This document shows positions 1 to 37,503 of a stretch of DNA of 43,951 nt, piece after piece. Each line of letters opens with the position of its first letter. Positions within the stretch are counted from its first letter, which is position 1. The stretch comes from a virus. Below the pieces are notes generated by a model. That model did not search any database and had not been told where the DNA came from. It saw nothing but the letters and a program-made list of their open reading frames with translations. The stretch is taken from the IMG/VR virus record IMGVR_UViG_2799112916_000001, positions 1 to 43,951 of that record. One strand, given 5' to 3'. The position numbers and the translations under genes were made by a program.

Positions 1-219
1 ATGATCTACACTCCATATGCGTACTGTAATGTGTATCTTCTTCTTATGAATGATACTACTCCAGTAAAAACAATAACATCTGTTTTTGCTAAAAACACTT
101 TATTTGGATTAGTTGAGTTATCTTCAGTCTTTGATGTTTCTGCGGAAAAAGTTTATTTCAATATTCAAGTAATTGACGGTAGTGTTTATGTAGATAATTT
201 AATTTGCACTATTTTGTAA
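1..219 (+). CDS. Silent variable C-terminal cassette 0 (5' part outside window), CBM-like beta-sandwich class
   Basis: Ends ...SVYVDNLICTIL*, like SVYLDDLSVISQ* (661 cassette) and IIYTDNWKLLYE* (expressed tip). Its TAA stop lies inside the next GTAAAAGA site (216). Confidence 0.75.
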   Translation: MIYTPYAYCNVYLLLMNDTTPVKTITSVFAKNTLFGLVELSSVFDVSAEKVYFNIQVIDGSVYVDNLICTIL

Positions 220-629
220 AAGATAAAGATATTAACTACTTCTGTTATGAAAGTGAATTAATATCCTCCAAAACATATAACATTGATTTGAATAATACAG
301 ATTTTTATTTAGAATTTATAATCCATCCTACTGCAAATAGTGATACTGCATACATCAACATTGGTGATCCTTTAAATAACCTGCAAATTGGTGATATATA
401 TGGTAATGCAAATTGTGGATTAAACTTTACTGGGGGTACTTTTTATGGGAAAGCAATTAGTATGAATGTTGATACAAAGATAACCGTAACTCGTAAAGGT
501 ACAAATGTTATTTTAACAGTTGGGGGATCTTCATATAGTATTTCAAATATGAATATTATTTGTTCTACTCTAAAAAATGTAACCATAAATGGAGAAGTTA
601 TGGAAAAACTTATTGTTTATTCTATTTAA
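216..629 (+). CDS. Silent cassette 1 (137 aa, VKDKDINYFCYE...), divergent LamG/ConA-like class
   Basis: Open frame from GTA AAA GAT AAA at 216 to TAA at 629. Ends KLIVYSI, like the other cassettes. Confidence 0.8.
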   Translation, partial: VKDKDINYFCYESELISSKTYNIDLNNTDFYLEFIIHPTANSDTAYINIGDPLNNLQIGDIYGNANCGLNFTGGTFYGKAISMNVDTKITVTRKGTNVILTVGGSSYSISNMNIICSTLKNVTINGEVMEKLIVYSI

Positions 630-660
630 GAGTGTTTCATAGGGGTTTTAACTAATTTAT

Positions 661-1080
661 GTAAAAGATAAATCTAATTTATTAGATTATAATCTTTGGA
701 GCGGTACTGATTATCTTAAAAATATAACTGGTTTCACAAAACATCCTACGTCTTCAACTGAATGGAGTGTTAATGGTGAACGAAGCTTAAAATTAACTCG
801 AACAAGGGACCAATATGATGATTATACAACTGAATGGTTTCAATCAATTCCTACAGGGAATTATTTAGTTACTCTCAAACTTTATGCTCCAAATACTAAT
901 GGGCAGGTTTCATTATTTGTAGGGGCAAATGAATCAATTTCTGTAGGTTATTCTAAATCCAATACTGTGCAAAATATATCTATATCTGTTACAGACAATA
1001 ATATAATTGGAATGAGAATATCAGTACACTCTTCTTTAGAATCAGTATACTTAGATGATTTAAGTGTAATATCTCAGTAA
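661..1080 (+). CDS. Silent cassette 2 (139 aa, VKDKSNLLDYNLWSGTDY...SVYLDDLSVISQ), CBM-like class; missed by ORF track because it has no start codon
   Basis: Hand-translated open frame 661-1080. NLWSGTDYL and SSTEWSVNGERSLK match NLWSGTDYL and SSNEWSSNFEKSIK of the expressed tip. Confidence 0.85.
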   Translation, partial: VKDKSNLLDYNLWSGTDYLKNITGFTKHPTSSTEWSVNGERSLKLTRTRDQYDDYTTEWFQSIPTGNYLVTLKLYAPNTNGQVSLFVGANESISVGYSKSNTVQNISISVTDNNIIGMRISVHSSLESVYLDDLSVISQ

Positions 1081-1550
1081 AAGATAAGAATATTAACTAT
1101 ATTGCATATGATATTGGAGTTACATCAAATTATAGTGATATTTGGCAAGATAATAACAATATGATTTCTCGTCAATCCGATGGAACAGAATTAACTGGAA
1201 ACCAATGGAATAGCATATCATTAAAATTAAACAATTCAACCAATATACCATTTACTGATGATTTATGTATTGAATTTGACTTATTGGCATTAAGTGGGAA
1301 CTTTAGAATTAATTTCAACGATGGTTCAGACCATTATTACACTTGGAATAGTTCAGACCAATATCAAGACATAGGACATTGGAAATTCATTATAAATAAT
1401 GGAAAAATCACAAGACAATTAGATGATGGACAAGTGTATGATTTAAGCACTTTCGACAACACAGTAAGTACATTTACTTTTATGTTATATGCTTATCAAA
1501 ATTTCCAATTTGCTAAATTTACTAATTTTCAAATATATCAAAGTCAGTAA
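1077..1550 (+). CDS. Silent cassette 3 (157 aa, VKDKNINYIAYDIG...), LamG/ConA-like
   Basis: ORF-track 1161..1550 extends in frame to the site at 1077. Motifs YDIG, IEFD, HWKF, FTNFQIY. Confidence 0.85.
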   Translation, partial: VKDKNINYIAYDIGVTSNYSDIWQDNNNMISRQSDGTELTGNQWNSISLKLNNSTNIPFTDDLCIEFDLLALSGNFRINFNDGSDHYYTWNSSDQYQDIGHWKFIINNGKITRQLDDGQVYDLSTFDNTVSTFTFMLYAYQNFQFAKFTNFQIYQSQ

Positions 1551-2053
1551 AAGATAAAGATTTGAATTATTTATCTTATGATATAGGAGTATTATCCAAC
1601 AATAATGCAGGTTATTGGACTGGTAAAGATGATAGGATTACAAGTGAACTAACATCTACTGGAACAGTTTTAACAGGAAATAACAGTAATTTATACAATT
1701 GTTATCTTGGAACATCATCTACATCCGGACAAACTTGTTATCAGGGAAAATTATGTGTTGAATTTGATGTTGTGTCAGTAACAAGCGCAAATAGTATAAG
1801 ACCCCAATTAACAAATGGAACAACAAAAACATCTACATTTTATTTAAATGAGTTAGGGGTTGTTGCTGGAGATCATATTAAAATTGTTGTAGAAAATGAT
1901 TATGTAGATTGGTATATTGGTAATGCAGTTAATCCAGTTAAACATGATACTGTTACTTTTAGCGAAACAACATATGCTATTGGTTTCAGGGGGAAATATC
2001 CATCTGTTTTTAAATTCAGAAATTTTATAGTTTATTCTAATTTAAATATGTAA
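1547..2053 (+). CDS. Silent cassette 4 (168 aa, VKDKDLNYLSYDIG...), LamG/ConA-like
   Basis: ORF 1562..2053 extends in frame to 1547. Motifs YDIG, CVEFD, DHIKI, FRNFIVY. Confidence 0.85.
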   Translation, partial: VKDKDLNYLSYDIGVLSNNNAGYWTGKDDRITSELTSTGTVLTGNNSNLYNCYLGTSSTSGQTCYQGKLCVEFDVVSVTSANSIRPQLTNGTTKTSTFYLNELGVVAGDHIKIVVENDYVDWYIGNAVNPVKHDTVTFSETTYAIGFRGKYPSVFKFRNFIVYSNLNM

Positions 2054-2511
2054 AAGATAAAGATATCAATTATCTATTTTATGATATTGGAGTAACTAGT
2101 AATCACAACGATAACTATTCATTAAGCAACATAATTAAATCAGTTGATAATGGAGTTAAATTCACAAATGATACTTCAGTAGGATATGCTTATTTCAAAA
2201 ATGGGGACTCCTTCAATTATCCAATAACATTAGAATTTGATTATTTAGATGCTTCCAATAGGTCAAATGTAGGTATTGATTTGCATACTGATGGAATACA
2301 CAGATGGACTTTTGGAGAGTTTAAACTTAACACAGATACTCATGTTAAACTCATATATGATGGGGAGCACATAACCCCTTATATGGATGGTTCTATTATA
2401 TCAACTGGAATACAAGAGCAATCTGCATTAACTAATTTTAAATTAGGATTTTATGTTAGAAATGATGGTTACCTTAAACTAAAAAATTTAATTGTATACT
2501 CTAATCAGTAA
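2050..2511 (+). CDS. Silent cassette 5 (153 aa, VKDKDINYLFYDIG...), LamG/ConA-like
   Basis: ORF 2281..2511 extends in frame to 2050. Motifs LEFD, THVKL, YMDG, LKNLIVY. Confidence 0.85.
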   Translation, partial: VKDKDINYLFYDIGVTSNHNDNYSLSNIIKSVDNGVKFTNDTSVGYAYFKNGDSFNYPITLEFDYLDASNRSNVGIDLHTDGIHRWTFGEFKLNTDTHVKLIYDGEHITPYMDGSIISTGIQEQSALTNFKLGFYVRNDGYLKLKNLIVYSNQ

Positions 2512-2978
2512 AAGATAAAGATTTAAATTATATCTTTTATGATGTTGGAACAACTACAAATTACAATAATTGGACTAACACTTGGTCTGCTATATTGACC
2601 CGTGGTTCAGAATACAGTACAATCGAAGTTGATACTGGACAATCATTAGCAACATATTACAAGTCTGTATCTGGCGATAATATCTGTTTTGAGATTGATG
2701 TAATGACTACACAAGCAACAAACAAAGGATTGATTACTTGGAGAAAAGTAACAACAGTACAAGGGTCATTTGTATTATCAGAGTTTAATCTTTCTGCAAA
2801 TACTTGGTATCATTTTAAAATTGAGTTAAAAGACAAAATGTATGTTTATGTTGATGGAGTAGCACAAACACCTAAAAATTATACAAATGATTATGATAAA
2901 TTCTGCATACATTGTTCAAGTGAGGGCGCTACAAATCTTAAAACATACTTTAAAAATTTTATGATATATGGAATATAA
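2508..2978 (+). CDS. Silent cassette 6 (156 aa, VKDKDLNYIFYDVG...), LamG/ConA-like
   Basis: ORF 2595..2978 extends in frame to 2508. Motifs CFEID, WYHFKI, YVDG, FKNFMIY. Confidence 0.85.
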   Translation, partial: VKDKDLNYIFYDVGTTTNYNNWTNTWSAILTRGSEYSTIEVDTGQSLATYYKSVSGDNICFEIDVMTTQATNKGLITWRKVTTVQGSFVLSEFNLSANTWYHFKIELKDKMYVYVDGVAQTPKNYTNDYDKFCIHCSSEGATNLKTYFKNFMIYGI

Positions 2979-2982
2979 GACA

Positions 2983-3486
2983 GTAAAAGATAGAAGTTAT
3001 CATGGTTGGAATTTATTATGGTATGATTTAGCAGAGGATAACACAAAGGAGTCAAGTTGGTATATAGACATTACAAACACTTCTGTTTCATATGATAGAA
3101 ATGGAAGAACAGTTACAAAAATAGATAACAGTACAACTTGGAGATATTTCTATTATAACTCCAATGCAATTTCTACAACAACGGTGGGAACTAAATATAC
3201 TATTCCGACTGGAAATGTTATAGAATTTGAGATTACTGCGATAACTGGAAGTGTTGTCTTTGATGTTTTAGATAATTTAAATAATCACTTGGATAATCAA
3301 GGAGCAACACAAACTGGACATTATAAGATTGTACTTGATGGAACAGACTGTAAAATGTACAAAGATAATGCTACAACTCCATATGCAACAAAAACAATGA
3401 ATGGAACAAATGTAAGGTTCGGATTTATATTCAATGCTTACAATGAAAGCATTACTTATAAGAATTTCTTAATTTATACTCCGTAA
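2983..3486 (+). CDS. Silent cassette 7 (167 aa, VKDRSYHGWNLLWYD...), LamG/ConA-like
   Basis: In frame from GTA AAA GAT AGA at 2983. Motifs IEFE, HYKIV, YKNFLIY. Confidence 0.85.
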   Translation, partial: VKDRSYHGWNLLWYDLAEDNTKESSWYIDITNTSVSYDRNGRTVTKIDNSTTWRYFYYNSNAISTTTVGTKYTIPTGNVIEFEITAITGSVVFDVLDNLNNHLDNQGATQTGHYKIVLDGTDCKMYKDNATTPYATKTMNGTNVRFGFIFNAYNESITYKNFLIYTP

Positions 3487-3956
3487 AAGATAAAACTTTA
3501 ACTTATACTTTTTATGATATTGGAACATCTACAAATTATGCCCCCTGGACTAATTCGGATTTTACTGATGGTAAGCTCAATCGTGGAAACGATTATACGA
3601 TTCTAACTCCACAAGATAGTTTCAATGAACAGGATAAAATTATATCAATGAATGTTTGTATAGAATTTGATGTGAATACTTCATTTACTGCCAATAATCC
3701 TATTTTTAGATTTAGAAAGAATAGATGGGCTAGTATTAATGCAGATTTTGATTCAAATGGATTAAGTATGTCTACTGATGTATGGTATCATATAAAATTT
3801 GTTGCTACATCAAGTAAGATTACTCCATTTGTAGATGGAGTTGAAAAGCAATATAAAACTCCAAACGATACATTTGATACGTTTATGATTGCTTTAAATA
3901 ATGGTTCAATTTCAAATATGAAATATAAAAATTTTATAGTGTATGAAATTCAGTAA
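3483..3956 (+). CDS. Silent cassette 8 (157 aa, VKDKTLTYTFYDIG...), LamG/ConA-like
   Basis: ORF 3648..3956 extends in frame to 3483. Motifs CIEFD, WYHIKF, FVDG, YKNFIVY. Confidence 0.85.
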   Translation, partial: VKDKTLTYTFYDIGTSTNYAPWTNSDFTDGKLNRGNDYTILTPQDSFNEQDKIISMNVCIEFDVNTSFTANNPIFRFRKNRWASINADFDSNGLSMSTDVWYHIKFVATSSKITPFVDGVEKQYKTPNDTFDTFMIALNNGSISNMKYKNFIVYEIQ

Positions 3957-4366
3957 AAGATAAAGACAAAACATACCTGTTATATGATCTACCTGAAACC
4001 GTAATTACAACTAAAAATTATTTTTTATCTACCGATAATGATTATTATGATTTTGAAGTACCATTTAAAATTGAATATGATATAGCAAATATTATTAATC
4101 CATCTAATTTTAGATTTAGAGTATATCAAAAAGATGGAGCTGCAAATCAAACAATGGTGGATAGTTTAACACAATATGGTATTTCTGATACAAAATATCA
4201 TCATGTAAATGTTACTATACTTCAAAATAAGTATAGTGTTGTTGTTGATAATGTAATGGTTATAAATAAGGATACAAATTTCACAGATAAATTGCGTGTT
4301 AATTTTACAAGAACAAATACTTCTTCTTCATCTAAAGTTAAAAATATGGTAATTTATCATGATTAA
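3953..4366 (+). CDS. Silent cassette 9 (137 aa, VKDKDKTYLLYD...), LamG/ConA-like
   Basis: ORF 4154..4366 extends in frame to 3953. Motifs IEYD, YHHVNV, VVDN, VKNMVIY. Confidence 0.85.
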   Translation, partial: VKDKDKTYLLYDLPETVITTKNYFLSTDNDYYDFEVPFKIEYDIANIINPSNFRFRVYQKDGAANQTMVDSLTQYGISDTKYHHVNVTILQNKYSVVVDNVMVINKDTNFTDKLRVNFTRTNTSSSSKVKNMVIYHD

Positions 4367-4377
4367 CGATTAGGTTT

Positions 4378-4857
4378 GTAAAAGATAAGAATAAAAATTA
4401 TATTTTCTGGGATATTGGTAGATCATCAAATTATAATGTTTGGGATAATGTAACTTATTCTGCAAGTGAAATCAATCGTGGAGATGATTTTACCACATTA
4501 ACCCCCGATAGTGATTGGGAAAGGGTAGACAAGACAATATCAGATGATAATGATTTCATAATGGAATTTGATATTAACTATAATTATTCTACCAGTTTTA
4601 GTTCAATTAGATATTATGATGGTAGTACTGGTAAAACAAGTTGGGATATGTTAAATGAGTTAGGATTAATTAGTGGAAATTGGTATCATATTAAATTAGA
4701 GAGAAATGGAAATACAATTACTCCAACAGTAGATGGAGTAACATTAACCAACAGAGCAAAGACATTTACTGGGAGCATTAATAAATTCAGTATAATTACA
4801 GATAACACAAAATGTACTAATATAAAGTATAAGAATTTTATATTTTATTCTATCTAA
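4378..4857 (+). CDS. Silent cassette 10 (159 aa, VKDKNKNYIFWDIG...), LamG/ConA-like
   Basis: ORF 4561..4857 extends in frame to 4378. Motifs MEFD, WYHIKL, TVDG, YKNFIFY. Confidence 0.85.
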   Translation, partial: VKDKNKNYIFWDIGRSSNYNVWDNVTYSASEINRGDDFTTLTPDSDWERVDKTISDDNDFIMEFDINYNYSTSFSSIRYYDGSTGKTSWDMLNELGLISGNWYHIKLERNGNTITPTVDGVTLTNRAKTFTGSINKFSIITDNTKCTNIKYKNFIFYSI

Positions 4858-4860
4858 TTT

Positions 4861-5301
4861 GTAAAAGATAAGAACAATTTATTAGATTTTAACTATTGGA
4901 CTATGGGAGATACAGGAGTAAAACCTGTCTTAACAACATGGGGATATTTTACTTCTGAAATATCAATAGAACATGCAACTAATGGAGATAAATGTGTAAA
5001 ATTAACATTAACAAATAATTCTGAGAAATATTTTAGTTTTAGAAATTCAGAATGTATTGGTAAAAAAGTAAATTGGAGAGTAGATTTATATGCTCCTGAT
5101 TCTGTGAAATTAGTCATATATTATTATACAACTACTTGGATAACTGCATCTTCAGTAATAGTTCCCTCTGGAGCATCTACTACTACATTATCTGCAACAA
5201 TTCCATCTAATGCAACAAATATATGGTATAGAGTGGAATGTGGTAATCTAACTACAGGAGATGTTATTTTCACAGATAATTGGAGATTATTCATAGAGTA
5301 A
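4861..5301 (+). CDS. Silent cassette 11 (146 aa, VKDKNNLLDFNYW...VIFTDNWRLFIE), CBM-like class, tail-to-tail with expressed tip
   Basis: ORF 4903..5301 extends in frame to 4861. Its C-terminus parallels IIYTDNWKLLYE of the minus-strand gene, which it overlaps by 15 nt. Confidence 0.85.
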   Translation, partial: VKDKNNLLDFNYWTMGDTGVKPVLTTWGYFTSEISIEHATNGDKCVKLTLTNNSEKYFSFRNSECIGKKVNWRVDLYAPDSVKLVIYYYTTTWITASSVIVPSGASTTTLSATIPSNATNIWYRVECGNLTTGDVIFTDNWRLFIE

Positions 5302-5313
5302 TTTCCAATTATC
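5275..5313. repeat. 16-bp imperfect inverted repeat at the convergence point of cassette 11 and the expressed tip
   Basis: GATAATTGGAGATTAT (5275-5290), loop TCATAGA, GTAATTTCCAATTATC (5298-5313); 14 of 16 positions match. Confidence 0.75.
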
Positions 5314-6657
5314 AGTATAGATAATTCCACTAGTATTATTTGCAATTCTGAGTTGTAGTTGTGTTTCAGATCCTGTGAATTCATCACTTGTTATTCTTGC
5401 AGTTATTGTTTGTGTTGTTGTTGATGGTGCGAAACTTGCTGATTTCATAATAGTGTTGGTACTGTTTGGTTGGTCTCTTGCTATGAGGTATAGTATTCCA
5501 TGACATTGTGATGTTACATCAACACTTCCAGTATATGACTTTGTCCGGTCTAAATTGTATTTGAAAAATACGGTATAGTCACCTGCGGATAGGTCTGATT
5601 TTATGCTTTTCTCAAAATTTGAAGACCATTCATTTGATGAAACAACGTTGGTAAATCCTTTTGAGCATGAGAATTGGATATTATCATCTTTTTCAGCTGA
5701 AACAATTCCAAGATAATCTGTTCCGCTCCAAAGGTTGACTCCGCATAAGTTCCGTTTCTCTTTTACAAACATAGTCAAATCATCACTGCACTTATTGATT
5801 TTCACATCACTAAAGTAAGTGGTGGTTAAGTCTCCGGTTAATACAAAGCAGAAACTGAAATAACTCATTGCAGCGGATAATGTAACACTTGCTGTACTGA
5901 CAGCTTTAGTATCCAAATTAACTGCTTTGATGAAAACATCAGTACCTAATACGTTAATGTAGAATTTGTACCATTGACCATTGCTTGCATCTGTTAATCC
6001 TAATTGTGATAAGGTTATTCCATTCAATGTACCAGTCACAGTACCTGAACTGTTGGTTTCTATGAGGCCACAGAAACTATCGCTTGCTGCTGCGTCTACA
6101 AGTTTGGCTTTGAAACTGATTTCAGTATAACCTGATAAAACTGGACTATAAAGTAAGCTATCAAGACTGTCATCATCTTTATAGATCAATGTGTAGTCAT
6201 GGTAGATTTCCTGTACGATATTGCCTGAATTACCCCATGTAGCAGTATTATTAAGAATAGCCCCATCATGGAAGAGATAATCTTGTGATAATTTTGCTTG
6301 AACGCTGAAGATATCGGAATCTTCCAATCTGAAGTTATAGTATGCTTCTCCGTTTAGGTCAGTTATTCCTTGACCTATGACTTCACGTGTTTTGCGGTTC
6401 ACGAAATCTACGGGTACACCATAACAATTATTACTGTTACTGTCTGTTACTTTGGCTTTCAAAGTACCCACATCAGCAGTTGTAATCGCATTATTCGGAG
6501 TGGTTAAAGCAACATTTGCTGGTTCAGGTAAACCCACATGCAGTACACTATTATTATCCACAGTCACAAAGTTTTCAAGTATTTCTTTTGTCTGATCCCT
6601 ATCAAAGAAATGATTATTAATCATTTGTCTTAAATTATGTTGTTCTATATTAGGCAT
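5287..6657 (-). CDS. Adhesin/receptor-binding tail protein: constant part (297 aa; Ig-like Big domain + LamG-like domain) fused to a variable 159-aa CBM-like tip starting at FVKEK
   Basis: Ig-like motif TLKAKVTDSN...GVPVDF...GITDLNGEAYYNF. LamG-like YLFHDG...WYKFYI...FSDVKI. Tip homologous to cassettes 2 and 11. Last gene of the tail-fibre block. Confidence 0.8.
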   Translation of the reverse strand: MPNIEQHNLRQMINNHFFDRDQTKEILENFVTVDNNSVLHVGLPEPANVALTTPNNAITTADVGTLKAKVTDSNSNNCYGVPVDFVNRKTREVIGQGITDLNGEAYYNFRLEDSDIFSVQAKLSQDYLFHDGAILNNTATWGNSGNIVQEIYHDYTLIYKDDDSLDSLLYSPVLSGYTEISFKAKLVDAAASDSFCGLIETNSSGTVTGTLNGITLSQLGLTDASNGQWYKFYINVLGTDVFIKAVNLDTKAVSTASVTLSAAMSYFSFCFVLTGDLTTTYFSDVKINKCSDDLTMFVKEKRNLCGVNLWSGTDYLGIVSAEKDDNIQFSCSKGFTNVVSSNEWSSNFEKSIKSDLSAGDYTVFFKYNLDRTKSYTGSVDVTSQCHGILYLIARDQPNSTNTIMKSASFAPSTTTQTITARITSDEFTGSETQLQLRIANNTSGIIYTDNWKLLYE

Positions 6658-6677
6658 GAAAAATCCTCCTCTAATTT

Positions 6678-7544
6678 TTAGTAGTGGTATAATATGTTCT
6701 GGCGAATGTTAATACCAGTGTCTTTGTTTCCTTTACCGCTTATGTTATGTACACAGATGCTCCCGTCGGTTTCCACACGAAATACGAAATCTCCCCTGTA
6801 GAATGGTTGGCCCACACGTCCATTTGGTTGGTATGCTTCCGGTATTGCTCCGGCTGTGTGAAGATATATTGACCCGTTGGTTGCTGCACCTACAATCCAG
6901 TATGGGCTTGGATTGTTATCCTTGTTTTTACTGTCTTTACTGGAAGCCACTCCTTTTTTAACAGAAGTACGACTATATGTGACTCTTGCTAATCTTAATG
7001 CTTGATTGACATATAAATTACAATAATTTGCTACATTATTATGACCTGATAATGTGATTTTTTCCCATTTGCAGATGTTAGTTACTGCTTCGTCAATCTT
7101 GTCGGATAAGACTTTTCCTTGATAAGCTGCTAATGCTTCACCATCAATGTAATTGCTGCTTGTTAAGTTATTAATGAGTTTGTTATGTCCATAATTAGCA
7201 GGTGTTCCTTTGCCGTATACATCTTGTGGAGTGGCGTGATTGATTTGTGCATATTCACTGTGACTGTGTAATGCACGTGCAAAATCTGCTGGAACATAAC
7301 CTTGGAATCTTGTTGCATTGATTGTTAATGTTTCACTTGCATTCAATAGGATTGTGGTTAGTTCTTCTCTGTCGATGTAGGTGTCATCCATTTCCAGTAC
7401 TTTTTCAGCGATTTCTTTTAATTTGGATTCACTTGTGATGACAATATTGTCGATGTTTTCTCCTTCTTCGCTGTATAATTTTACTTCAGCACCCATCATT
7501 CCTGTTTCTGTTTCATAGAAAATTCTTGTCTTATAATCCACCAT
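6678..7544 (-). CDS. Tail fibre-like protein
   Basis: HSHSEY/NHAT...YGHNKL...ALAAYQGKVLSDKID motifs are typical of tail-fibre segments; position after the baseplate genes. Confidence 0.55.
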   Translation of the reverse strand: MVDYKTRIFYETETGMMGAEVKLYSEEGENIDNIVITSESKLKEIAEKVLEMDDTYIDREELTTILLNASETLTINATRFQGYVPADFARALHSHSEYAQINHATPQDVYGKGTPANYGHNKLINNLTSSNYIDGEALAAYQGKVLSDKIDEAVTNICKWEKITLSGHNNVANYCNLYVNQALRLARVTYSRTSVKKGVASSKDSKNKDNNPSPYWIVGAATNGSIYLHTAGAIPEAYQPNGRVGQPFYRGDFVFRVETDGSICVHNISGKGNKDTGINIRQNILYHY

Positions 7545-35915: not shown

Positions 35916-36896
35916 TTATGAAATTTTTTCCAAGACATTCACTCGGATATGCTCTGCAATGGCCCTCATCAAGTTAGGTGGTACACTATTACCAATCCTT
36001 TCTTTGACTTGATTATCCGAACCAATCCAATTGAATTCATTATCCTCATATGTGAAACTTTGAAGTATGCTTAATTCTTTCACATCTAATTCACGATTTT
36101 CTTTATAGTGAACTAATTGAGGTTTTCTGGTTATGGTTGGGCATGGCCTATTTGGCAGTAAACGATATATGTCTCTGGTCTTTGTTGGGAAGTTTGGAAC
36201 ATCACCACTTTTCTGACCAGGTTTAAGATATTTTGCATATCTTGTGATGCTTGAATTGTTAGGTTTAATCTTACCCTCCAAATGTCCAATACTCTGTTTG
36301 CAGGTTATTGGTTTATTTTGAGGTTTTGGATGTGACGCTGGTATACCAAGGTCTTTACGGACTCCTATGAATATCATTCTTTGCCGACTTGTTGGACAAT
36401 TGTAGTATTGTGCATTCATCAGTTTGGCTTTGACATCATAACCTGAGTTTTTCAATTCGTGTAGGATGTCTTTGAAGATGATCTTCATATTGCCTTTAAC
36501 CATACCAGATACATTTTCCATTACGAATGTTTTTGGATATAATCCTCTTAGTAGTCGGACGTATTCATGGTATAGTTGGTTTTTGGTATCGCAGAAGTCA
36601 CGGGCTCCAGCAGTACTGAATCCTTGACATGGTGGTGACCCATCGAAGAGGTCTAGTTCTCCTGGTATTAATCCGGTTATGTCAAGGACTTTTTCAACAC
36701 TTAGTTTGTGGATGTCACCATAGTAGATTGGTGTATTGGGGAAGTTTCTTTGGTATGTTGCTACGGCATGTGTGTCCATTTCAACTGCTAGCAGGACTTT
36801 GTATCCTGCTAACTTATATCCATAACTGGAACCTCCGCATCCGCTGAATGTTGATATAACCTTAGGTTTCTGAGTAGTCTTGTTTTGGGATTTCAT
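35916..36896 (-). CDS. DNA cytosine-C5 methyltransferase
   Basis: Motifs FSGCGG (I), GSPPCQGFS (IV), ENV (VI), RQR (VIII), IGNSVPP (X). Probable start MKSQN at 36896. Confidence 0.95.
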   Translation of the reverse strand: MKSQNKTTQKPKVISTFSGCGGSSYGYKLAGYKVLLAVEMDTHAVATYQRNFPNTPIYYGDIHKLSVEKVLDITGLIPGELDLFDGSPPCQGFSTAGARDFCDTKNQLYHEYVRLLRGLYPKTFVMENVSGMVKGNMKIIFKDILHELKNSGYDVKAKLMNAQYYNCPTSRQRMIFIGVRKDLGIPASHPKPQNKPITCKQSIGHLEGKIKPNNSSITRYAKYLKPGQKSGDVPNFPTKTRDIYRLLPNRPCPTITRKPQLVHYKENRELDVKELSILQSFTYEDNEFNWIGSDNQVKERIGNSVPPNLMRAIAEHIRVNVLEKIS

Positions 36897-37503
36897 ACCC
36901 ACACCTTGGACAAGTGACTGTTTCAATACCGTCAGCTATGGATTCATCGTATTCTGGTTCGTCTTCAGGGATTATCATATTAGTGTCTAGGTTGATGTCC
37001 TCTTCTTTTACTGTTGAGGTTTCTTCAACTGTAGTAGTTTCTGTTAATCCTTGGAATCCGAGAATATCTTCATTGTTGAATCCTGTTAAACTTGTGTTGA
37101 AGCCGGATTCAGTTAAATCAGTGAAGACTTGAACGAGTTTGTCTTCATCGAAACTACCCATGACCTTGGTATTGTTTAATACTAGGTTGAGGGCTTTTTC
37201 CATGTCCTCGGAGTCTAGTGTGATGTCATTGTCTGGGAATACCCATCCGTATGAATCATTTAACTTCAATAAGTTTAGTTCTGCATATAAGTCATTGTCG
37301 AGGAGGTATTGTTCCCATAATATTTGGAATCTTTGATGTCCTCCGATGATCTGATTATTATTTTGCAGGGCTATTAGTATTGGTTCGACTATTCCAAAGT
37401 GGTCAATACTATTTTTGAGTCTTGTTTTTTCATCAGCTGTGATTGTTCTAGGGTTGTATCCTGCTGGGGATATATCAATGATTTTTATTTTTTCTATTTG
37501 CAT
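36862..37503 (-). CDS. ParB/Srx-like N-terminal domain protein with C-terminal Zn ribbon
   Basis: YNPR...SIDHFGIVEPI...IIGGHQR; CPRCG at the C-terminus. Confidence 0.85.
   Translation of the reverse strand: MQIEKIKIIDISPAGYNPRTITADEKTRLKNSIDHFGIVEPILIALQNNNQIIGGHQRFQILWEQYLLDNDLYAELNLLKLNDSYGWVFPDNDITLDSEDMEKALNLVLNNTKVMGSFDEDKLVQVFTDLTESGFNTSLTGFNNEDILGFQGLTETTTVEETSTVKEEDINLDTNMIIPEDEPEYDESIADGIETVTCPRCGYEIPKQDYSET

Follow-up and report, generated by a model that had tools for sequence, protein, structure and literature searches.

A putative shufflon-type multiple-inversion switch for the receptor-binding tip of a tail adhesin in a methanogen provirus

The DNA considered here is the virus record IMGVR_UViG_2799112916_000001 of IMG/VR (43,951 nucleotides (nt); "the window" refers to this whole stretch), which corresponds to G000:C23:13236-57186, G000 being the genome under study and C23 the contig. 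The window holds most of a tailed provirus, on the minus strand. The locus of interest, at positions 1 to 6,657, has two components: a single gene (5287-6657, minus strand) for a tail adhesin of 456 amino acids (aa) and, opposite it, a row of open reading frames without start codons (referred to as cassettes), each of which begins at the same 8-nt core, GTAAAAGA. The last domain of the adhesin, i.e., its tip, begins at an inverted copy of this core. On the evidence of sequence comparison, the locus is very probably a shufflon-type switch, in which multiple inversions exchange the receptor-binding tip of the adhesin in a methanogen provirus.

The core occurs 17 times in the window, against 2.7 +/- 1.6 expected, and none of 100 shuffles reached 17. 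Eleven array cores lie on the plus strand, at the first bases of the eleven complete cassettes in Table 1 and spaced 416-503 nt apart, and from each of them an open frame extends until it stops at, or shortly before, the next core (at seven of the 11 window sites the TAA stop of the preceding cassette lies inside the core). The only array core on the minus strand lies inside the adhesin gene and in its frame (F/VKEK). Upstream of the window, contig C23 has six further plus-strand cores (C23:10761-12996), which belong to cassette 0, cut by the edge of the window, and to five further cassettes. In total, G000 has 17 silent cassettes and one expressed tip, i.e., 17 plus-strand sites and one minus-strand site. 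The silent array is 7.8 kb long and 99% of it is open frame in phase with the cores; the chance of 137 stop-free codons is about 3e-6 at 28% G+C, and none of 3600 shuffled windows was open.

None of the 11 window cassettes has a Shine-Dalgarno-like motif before its core, and an in-frame ATG is found within the first 50 codons of only two of them, in neither case with such a motif. The 8-base core is identical at all 18 sites, and its valine codon is GTA at all 18, whereas GTA accounts for only 26-36% of the valine codons in the virus; therefore, the core has been conserved as DNA, beyond the needs of the protein. Alignment of the 18 sites shows the invariant GTAAAAGA followed by a near-invariant TAAA (8 base pairs (bp) invariant, 12 bp near-invariant) and a weaker, A/T-rich arm on the cassette side, with no conservation on the other side. 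The site is thus asymmetric, with a conserved core, one conserved arm and one variable arm. The original prediction, made from the letters of the window alone, had described eleven plus-strand frames of 137-168 aa starting in frame at the core, without start codon or ribosome-binding site, together with one inverted core (5766-5759) in the adhesin frame and a cassette running off the window edge. All of these features were recovered, translation giving the same lengths; the estimate of at least 13 tips was right as to the existence of the array and too low as to its size, there being 18 tips in G000 and 14 to 34 or more in its relatives.

Table 1. Features of the adhesin locus and its upstream neighbour (positions in the window)
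Position	Strand	Feature	Length (aa)	Remarks
1-219	+	silent cassette 0, 3' part	152	type B; start at C23:12996, 239 bases upstream of window base 1
216-626	+	silent cassette	137	divergent type A; core 216-223
661-1077	+	silent cassette	139	type B (predicted CBM-like)
1077-1547	+	silent cassette	157	type A (predicted ConA/LamG-like)
1547-2050	+	silent cassette	168	type A; 98% identical silent cassette in metagenome contigs L027, L028
2050-2508	+	silent cassette	153	type A
2508-2975	+	silent cassette	156	type A; cassette used for folding; weak Pfam Laminin_G_3 match
2983-3483	+	silent cassette	167	type A; site GTAAAAGATAGA (VKDR)
3483-3953	+	silent cassette	157	type A
3953-4363	+	silent cassette	137	type A; matches expressed tip of P0011
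4378-4854	+	silent cassette	159	type A
4861-5298	+	silent cassette	146	type B; convergent with expressed tip, overlap of a few bases
5287-5766	-	expressed "default" tip	159 + stop	type B; deviant site GTAAAAGAGAAAC (VKEK)
5759-5766	-	putative crossover core of expression site		GTAAAAGA; in frame (codons GTA AAA GA-)
5767-6657	-	constant part of adhesin	297	helical N-terminus, Ig-like (Big_1-like) domain, lectin-like beta-sandwich, linker ending DDLTMF
6665-6671	-	Shine-Dalgarno-like GAGGAGG before adhesin ATG		sole translation start signal for the whole system
6678-7544	-	tail-fibre-repeat protein	288	Phage_fiber_rpt match; upstream of adhesin; context, outside the switch

A search of 5.8 billion proteins returned 23 homologues, which have the constant part in common: in their alignment it is conserved through ...KINKCSDDLTMF-VK, and beyond that point the sequences cannot be aligned. 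Among the twelve of these proteins whose constant parts are 91-96% identical to that of G000, no fewer than 11 different tips are found. P0005 has a tip with 96.7% identity over 152 aa to silent cassette 0, and the tip of P0011 (contigs L027 and L028), which follows a constant part of 94.6% identity, is 92% identical over 138 aa to cassette 3953-4363. That is, a constant 5' part is joined in frame to alternative 3' parts, all cores sharing one frame, and sequences which are silent in G000 are found as expressed tips elsewhere.

The rearrangement itself can be followed in two pairs of contigs that are almost the same in sequence. The first pair, L027 and L030, stems from two samples within a single project; identity is 99.99% across 10.9 kb of tail genes and 99.85-99.97% across the array, but the order is constant part, A, B in L027 and constant part, B, inverted A in L030. 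The alignments share an overlap of only 12-14 nt at the sites, and in a table of the junctions the left flanks and the cassettes are unchanged but have traded partners, precisely at the core. It is possible that a deletion between direct sites also separates the two. A second, independent pair from another project (L033 and L034, 99.8-100% identical) shows an equivalent rearrangement, and in both pairs the breakpoints lie within the core. Thus, these events are far faster than point mutation. The end of L033 has yet another junction variant, which suggests a mixture inside that sample.

Assemblies also fork at the core, or within a few bases of it, in three cases. One is G179 (96% identity in the constant part): its contig C23 stops precisely at the core, its 2.9-kb contig C41 lies between two inverted cores, and C31 shares with C41 an overlap of 141 nt that begins at the core; this is the assembly-graph signature of an invertible segment. 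In G206 and metagenome Ga0310696 the break falls at the joint or right next to it. That shufflons interrupt genome assemblies is known (PMC5430464). In a more distant lineage (G177 and L036, constant part 44% identical), every site reads ATAAAAGA (I-K-D), including the site of the gene itself; in G177 this holds for all 34 sites, belonging to the expressed cassette, one direct cassette and 32 inverted ones. Comparison therefore indicates that the core has changed in concert between lineages. Short sites in both orientations are found in G000 (17 plus, one minus) and, in mixed orientations, in its relatives. Taken together, sequence comparison shows in-frame fused products, reciprocal and non-duplicative rearrangements that break inside the core, a concerted change of the core, and a joint at a predicted domain boundary. 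The original prediction, that inversion at the 5766 core would fuse a new domain to the 297-aa part, is supported by the re-partnered junctions and the fused tips of relatives: the alternative junctions at GTAAAAGA that it called for are present in related genomes, and the order of cassettes is not invariant among them.

Scoring with hidden Markov models divided the cassettes cleanly into two families. Type A (pattern ...YxFYDIG ... KNFxIY) has 11 members in G000, and type B (pattern ...NLxxxNxWS ... YxDNxxL) has seven, including the expressed tip together with cassettes 0, 2 and 11, to which it had been predicted to be homologous. Most cassettes are 20-40% identical to each other. In AlphaFold models built with cassette alignments, the type A cassette at 2508-2975 (predicted local distance difference test, pLDDT, of 81) forms a ConA/galectin/CBM66-like jelly roll, for which Foldseek gave a probability of 1.0 and TM scores of 0.57-0.68 to a galectin-like protein, CBM66 and L-type lectins; type A cassettes also have weak Pfam Laminin_G matches. 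In the model of the full-length adhesin, in which the constant part comprises an immunoglobulin (Ig)-like domain and a lectin-like sandwich, residues 298-456 (type B) have a pLDDT of about 90 or more and superpose on the carbohydrate-binding modules (CBMs) CBM16, CBM61, CBM22 and CBM4, as well as on C-terminal domains of phage tailspikes and fibres (CBA120 TSP4, Klebsiella K2-2 TSP, Kp7 gp52 and the Douge central fibre), with Z 14-15 and a root-mean-square deviation of 2.5-2.8 A over 138-142 residues. Matches in BFVD are minor tail proteins, tail-fibre proteins and CBM-containing phage proteins. The structural alignments begin at residues 297-301, i.e., at the joint, and pLDDT dips at 291-294, in agreement with the earlier claim that the joint lies at the boundary of the last domain. 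Thus, whole domains of carbohydrate-binding type appear to be exchanged at an interdomain linker. The tips are predicted to belong to two fold classes, CBM-like and ConA/LamG-like, and on the basis of these models they may bind different surface glycans of pseudomurein-walled hosts, thereby changing the specificity of adsorption.

Relatives add to the range of cassettes. L030 has a silent cassette of 250 aa (L030:16445-17194, minus strand) with an extra Ig-like (Big_1) domain ahead of the type A domain; a cassette can therefore comprise more than one domain. Elsewhere in the genus, other genomes have type A domains singly or in convergent pairs (e.g. G187:C17:118-998 and G208:C192:8044-8894). 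These pairs may represent simple inversion switches between two tips, related to the large arrays, which look like an expansion of such a simpler switch.

The proposed mechanism is as follows. The one gene with a promoter-proximal start signal would supply the constant part of 297 aa and a last domain of about 150 aa, beginning at the core (V-K-D/E). The seventeen start-less cassettes opposite each encode a complete domain of predicted carbohydrate-binding type, which likewise opens with the core, in an identical frame. If the core of the gene and the inverted core of any one cassette underwent conservative site-specific recombination, the intervening DNA would be flipped, such that this cassette became fused in frame to the constant part and the earlier tip was parked as a silent cassette. 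The enzyme would be supplied from elsewhere, most likely in the form of the provirus's own divergent integrase. By analogy with Rci and its sfx sites, it would belong to the tyrosine recombinases and recognise sites that are asymmetric, their core being invariant, the arm on the cassette side semi-conserved and the other arm variable.

The arrays do not appear to be scrambled. Nine are long enough to judge (G000, G179, G177, L027, L030, L033, L034, L035 and L036). In G000 and G179 the expressed tip bears the deviant site (GTAAAAGAGAAAC, VKEK) and every other cassette lies opposite to it. The other seven arrays consist of the gene, then one to 11 silent direct cassettes, then an inverted xKEx cassette, and then the remaining inverted cassettes; this layout is exactly what a ground state like that of G000 would yield if the expression site and a distal cassette underwent a single inversion. 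In nine of nine arrays, the xKEx cassette occupies one of two places, the expression site or the pivot, where it heads the inverted cassettes that follow the direct run; thus, every array is no inversion or one inversion away from the ground state, and within each pair of near-identical contigs the two arrays are different derivatives of it, each by a single step. This topology suggests either a preference among sites, with almost all events involving the deviant site or the expression site, or selection in favour of the default state; as a third explanation, the pattern may be an effect of the small sample. The default tip also differs in composition, with a G+C content of 0.348 against 0.24-0.305 in the silent cassettes, and it is 66% identical in the lineage of G177 and L036, the constant part of which is just 44% identical. 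The cassette array as a whole has about 28-30% G+C and a positive GC skew (window 1-6000), the default tip plus constant part 35-36%, and the remaining provirus 32-38% (6001-43951). The outer border of the array has the same features in two lineages: a conserved small open reading frame of 88-92 aa with a faint fn3-like match (L005:10429-10707, minus strand, in G000:C23 coordinates; L030:18209-18475), and a conserved leader of about 170 nt (...QQKNADYESDN-VKDK).

The Pfam and PHROGs scans covered all larger open reading frames of the window, the DNA flanking the array of G177 and the end of the provirus in G179; the only recombinase-like result was a divergent integrase, encoded at the far end of the proviruses of G179, G177 and G206. 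In G179 (C23:38840-39883) it is a protein of 348 aa of the tyrosine type, with a SAM-like N-terminal domain, encoded next to tRNA-Ser and tRNA-Arg and 40% identical to paralogues that match PF00589; the orthologues in G177 and G206 have 73-74% identity. A sequence search of the PDB with the integrase gave no match, and no convincing att repeat was found between the two provirus ends in G179 and G177. The contig of G000 stops about 1-2 kb short of the position of the integrase in G179, its closest relative, and the far end of the provirus is absent from the assembly. PF00589 has no match on contig C23 of G000, the three matches in the genome being on other contigs; PF00239 has none in G000, G179 or G206 and only fragments on unrelated contigs in G177; and PF01548 (DEDD transposase-like, Piv/IS110-type invertase) has none in G000. 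The candidate recombinase to which the original prediction referred is therefore to be found neither in the window nor in the assembly, and none flanks the array in the relatives examined. If the genome is circular, the integrase end is only a few kb from the array, beyond the lysin gene, and for this reason the provirus integrase is the leading candidate for the array recombinase, albeit a tentative one, with the odds leaning against it; the alternatives are a host recombinase, such as the XerA-like enzyme, or an unrecognised viral protein.

Just past the tRNAs that flank the provirus integrase there are pairs of strong tyrosine recombinases in tandem, beside an N6-methylase fragment (L024:12464-14588, which is G179:C23:42463-44587; G177:C81:17399-18989; G206:C73:3-1536), with no counterpart in the G000 assembly. 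These pairs may form part of a phase-variable type I restriction locus, or be candidate invertases. As the enzyme of the array, the pair in G179 was set aside: it lies next to the N6-methylase fragment and probably belongs to a separate, phase-variable restriction locus.

Several observations weigh against an active switch of the kind proposed. Profile searches found no recombinase in the window or in the 13 kb upstream of it, and none adjoins the arrays of G177, L030, L034, L035 and L036. The array of G000 was assembled in a single arrangement, the ground state. The hub-and-spoke pattern of inversions is unlike what would be expected of a freely shuffling shufflon of the R64 type. The conserved arm on the cassette side could reflect a coding constraint (VKDKxxNY) instead of binding by a recombinase, and the only pointer to the binding specificities of the tips is their predicted fold. 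Metagenome contigs from mixed populations can be chimeric paths; therefore, the orders of cassettes are less certain than the individual junctions. The lack of any array with an adjacent recombinase, and the single arrangement of G000, would also suit an evolutionary relic, i.e., a paralogous array in which fusions arose by rare illegitimate or homologous recombination, with no dedicated recombinase and no switching on the timescale of populations. This is improbable, as the two pairs of contigs with 99.8-100% identity differ by rearrangement, three assemblies fork at or just beside the core, the core is invariant even at synonymous positions and changes in concert between lineages, and seventeen start-less frames have stayed open.

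One expression site with many silent, start-less cassettes, all of those in G000 pointing in one direction, also calls to mind non-reciprocal gene conversion into an expression site, as in Neisseria pilE/pilS or Borrelia vlsE. However, the rearrangements are reciprocal and duplicate nothing: a tip that has been displaced is found again a single time, in inverted orientation, at the place of its partner, intervening cassettes switch orientation, and the identity at the joint is just 8-14 nt, with no flanking blocks of homology on its left side. Gene conversion is accordingly judged very unlikely. Diversification by hypermutation of the kind seen with diversity-generating retroelements was set aside, in that the variation lies between whole, unrelated cassettes and not within a pair of template and variable repeats. 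The plus-strand frames are long and intact and VKDK is conserved in the protein, as would be the case if they were small genes in their own right, for separate tip or decoy proteins with non-canonical starts, and the motif merely an N-terminal peptide; but there is no Shine-Dalgarno-like motif or start codon at or near the motif, the valine codon is always GTA, the stop of a cassette often lies inside the next core with no intergenic space, and in other genomes these same cassettes occur as in-frame fusions with the constant part, such that we give this explanation hardly any credence. Finally, mis-joins at repeats could mimic alternative junctions, given that the relatives are mostly metagenome assemblies or metagenome-assembled genomes (MAGs) and that repeat arrays are hard to assemble (PMC5430464). 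Against such an artefact, the shared repeat of 8-14 nt is far shorter than assembly k-mers (several record names have the prefix k141), the cassettes have mostly 20-40% identity with one another, and more than 10 independent assemblies, produced by different assemblers, agree in showing this in-frame architecture; an artefact is the least credible of the explanations. A shufflon-type inversion switch remains the reading that we prefer.

Switches of this general design are known from other settings. The shufflon of R64 and other IncI plasmids (Rci, sfx, pilV) also joins a constant N-terminal part to alternative C-terminal segments of an adhesin, by way of many short crossover sites in both orientations, which are asymmetric, with an invariant core and one conserved arm. 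The sfx site has a variable arm of 12 bp, a core of 7 bp and a conserved arm of 12 bp, and its asymmetry is thought to limit Rci to inversions (bioRxiv 10.1101/2024.10.25.620183). Both loci break assemblies (PMC5430464). The differences are that R64 is a conjugative plasmid with four segments, seven sites and seven PilV ends, whereas an archaeal virus with 18 tips (14 to 34 or more in relatives) is concerned here; that rci adjoins the R64 shufflon, whereas no recombinase is adjacent here; that the arrays here are unscrambled, at no inversion or one inversion from the ground state; and that a cassette here is a single whole domain, whereas an R64 segment is two-faced. The closest known system is the Rin shufflon of Bifidobacterium prophages, in which a gene for the constant part (Rc) of a prophage receptor-binding protein is followed by tandem variable C-terminal cassettes (Rv) (PMC6109161). 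The same architecture, with sites of similar length, is found here. In Rin, the crossover sites are 11 bp long, inversions were inferred from comparison of genomes and from virion DNA, and the Rv proteins are mutually 6-30% identical, in a gut setting, as here; a second locus in the same Bifidobacterium work has a crossover site of 8 bp and no flanking recombinase (PMC6109161). Rin has five tips and a dedicated flanking tyrosine invertase in a bacterial host, whereas the arrays described here have 18-34 tips of two folds and no flanking invertase, in an archaeal host with a pseudomurein wall.

In p15B Min, Mu Gin and P1 Cin, too, C-termini of tail fibres are exchanged by site-specific inversion, which alters host range. 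The enzymes are serine invertases encoded beside the invertible segment, and an enhancer and Fis are needed. Here, by contrast, no serine recombinase (PF00239) was found in G000, and the architecture of the sites also differs from that of Gin, Cin, Min and Pin. According to the summary given in PMC6109161, Min is the multiple-inversion version of the tail-fibre switch. Among archaeal viruses, the comparison is with phiCh1, made by description and not by sequence: the locus here has one expression site, a one-sided array of start-less cassettes and no recombinase, and there is neither a gene between expression site and array nor a second, start-bearing fibre gene facing the first. In phiCh1, int1 lies between two convergent fibre genes with clusters of repeats, and the outcome is variants of two genes; this inversion, the one case of its kind known to have been characterised in an archaeal virus, was reportedly described by Rossler in 2004 and Klein in 2012. 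As outlined in PMC10791045, PMC8371274 and PMC6471424, the Int1 tyrosine recombinases of the haloarchaeal myoviruses phiCh1, phiH1 and ChaoS9 exchange the C-termini of tail fibres by inversion, with a change in the specificity of adhesion. The earlier statement that no characterised system in an archaeal virus resembles the present one thus needs qualification, although the phiCh1 system, as described there, is a swap between two genes without an array of cassettes. Among cellular genes, the vsa/HvsR locus of Mycoplasma pulmonis and the hsdS invertons of type I restriction-modification systems likewise combine one expression site with many silent, start-less segments and short sites, at which a tyrosine recombinase acts. 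These loci, including the hsdS invertons (PMC7672463), concern surface antigens or specificity subunits of cells and have smaller repertoires, whereas the product here is a virion protein.

The principle is therefore already known, from the R64 shufflon, p15B Min and Rin and, in archaea, from phiCh1. New here are the setting in viruses of methanogens with a pseudomurein wall, the number of tips (14 to 34 or more, compared with two to seven in other systems), the occurrence of two fold classes, the lack of an invertase next to the array, and the topology of ground state and pivot. A fuller reading would combine these points: a shufflon without an invertase of its own, constituting the largest natural programmed library of whole domains known in any virion protein (two folds, with 18 tips in G000 and at least 34 in a relative), run in trans by the provirus integrase or a host recombinase, obeying a pivot rule by which the deviant xKEx site takes part in nearly every event and the default state toggles with any alternative, and the first of its kind in methanogen viruses. 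From what the sequences allow, this combination as a whole is possible, with a little less than an even chance of being right in every part.

Methanobrevibacter is the main producer of methane in the rumen and the human gut. To our knowledge, very few methanogen viruses have been cultured, and nothing is known of how the viruses of Methanobrevibacter choose their hosts. A repertoire of 14 to 34 or more sugar-binding tips on one adhesin would imply a large and fast-varying diversity of glycans on the host surface, and the array amounts to a concrete list of candidate receptor-binding domains, which is relevant to virus-based control of enteric methane. If the switch is active, the set of cells open to attachment by the virus should change with the tip. 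There is also relevance to the assignment of hosts in metagenomes, as the tip region misleads linkage by similarity and breaks assemblies, and to synthetic biology, in which shufflons with dozens of modules are wanted (bioRxiv 10.1101/2024.10.25.620183). An array that stays no more than one step from its ground state without an adjacent invertase raises questions of how sites are chosen, and of whether archaeal integrases double as invertases. A full-text search of the literature found no shufflon or invertible tip array in a methanogen virus, a prior description being possible in Medvedeva et al. (2023, Nat Microbiol 8:2170), and the paper on MSTV1 (PMC11375127) makes no mention of a shufflon or tip array.

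As to the surroundings of the locus, the provirus is that of a Methanobrevibacter-like methanogen of the gut or rumen. McrB is encoded by the host genome, the nearest public homologue is annotated as from a Methanobrevibacter sp. MAG, and the lysin of one relative has, in addition, a Pei peptidase domain; thus, the label "methanogen virus" in the original prediction is justified. The phage GenBank collection has no DNA match to window 1-7000, and IMG/VR has no relative of the constant part. The provirus encodes PCNA, an ERCC4 nuclease, an ASCH domain protein, a C5 methylase and a ParB-like protein, followed by the head and packaging genes (terminase, portal, Mu-F-like protein and capsid) and by the tail genes (baseplate J, a TIM-barrel protein of the non-contractile-tail-sheath type, a transglutaminase-like hub and the tail-fibre-repeat protein), with the adhesin closing the order. 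Synteny of the gene for the 288-aa tail-fibre-repeat protein is kept in all relatives, and this protein is probably a shaft or adaptor for the adhesin. Upstream of the window, contig C23 continues with the remaining cassettes, after which come genes for an Ig-like protein of 232 aa and for a lysin of 586 aa that has pseudomurein-binding repeats; beyond the lysin gene are cysE and then tRNA-Cys.

About 1 kb past the lysin, the serine acetyltransferase gene cysE (C23:5942-6646) has in its 5' part, and in its frame (A-VKDKD-PAARS), an additional inverted GTAAAAGATAA, the extended form of the site (G000:C23:6603-6613, minus strand). This 11-mer has just three further occurrences in the 2.4-Mb genome, and the copy in cysE may be due to chance, arising from a common CysE motif, or may be related to the border of the provirus. 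Elsewhere in G000, mcrB matches as two pieces in different frames at the extreme start of a contig (G000:C29:1166-1850), and mcrA (PF02249) was not found in the assembly, which is probably a contig-edge or assembly problem in the mcr operon. Within the provirus, the gene for the C5 cytosine DNA methylase adjoins that for a protein with a ParB N-terminal domain, directly upstream of the terminase gene (window 35916-37503, minus strand), and the two may have a role in anti-restriction or packaging.

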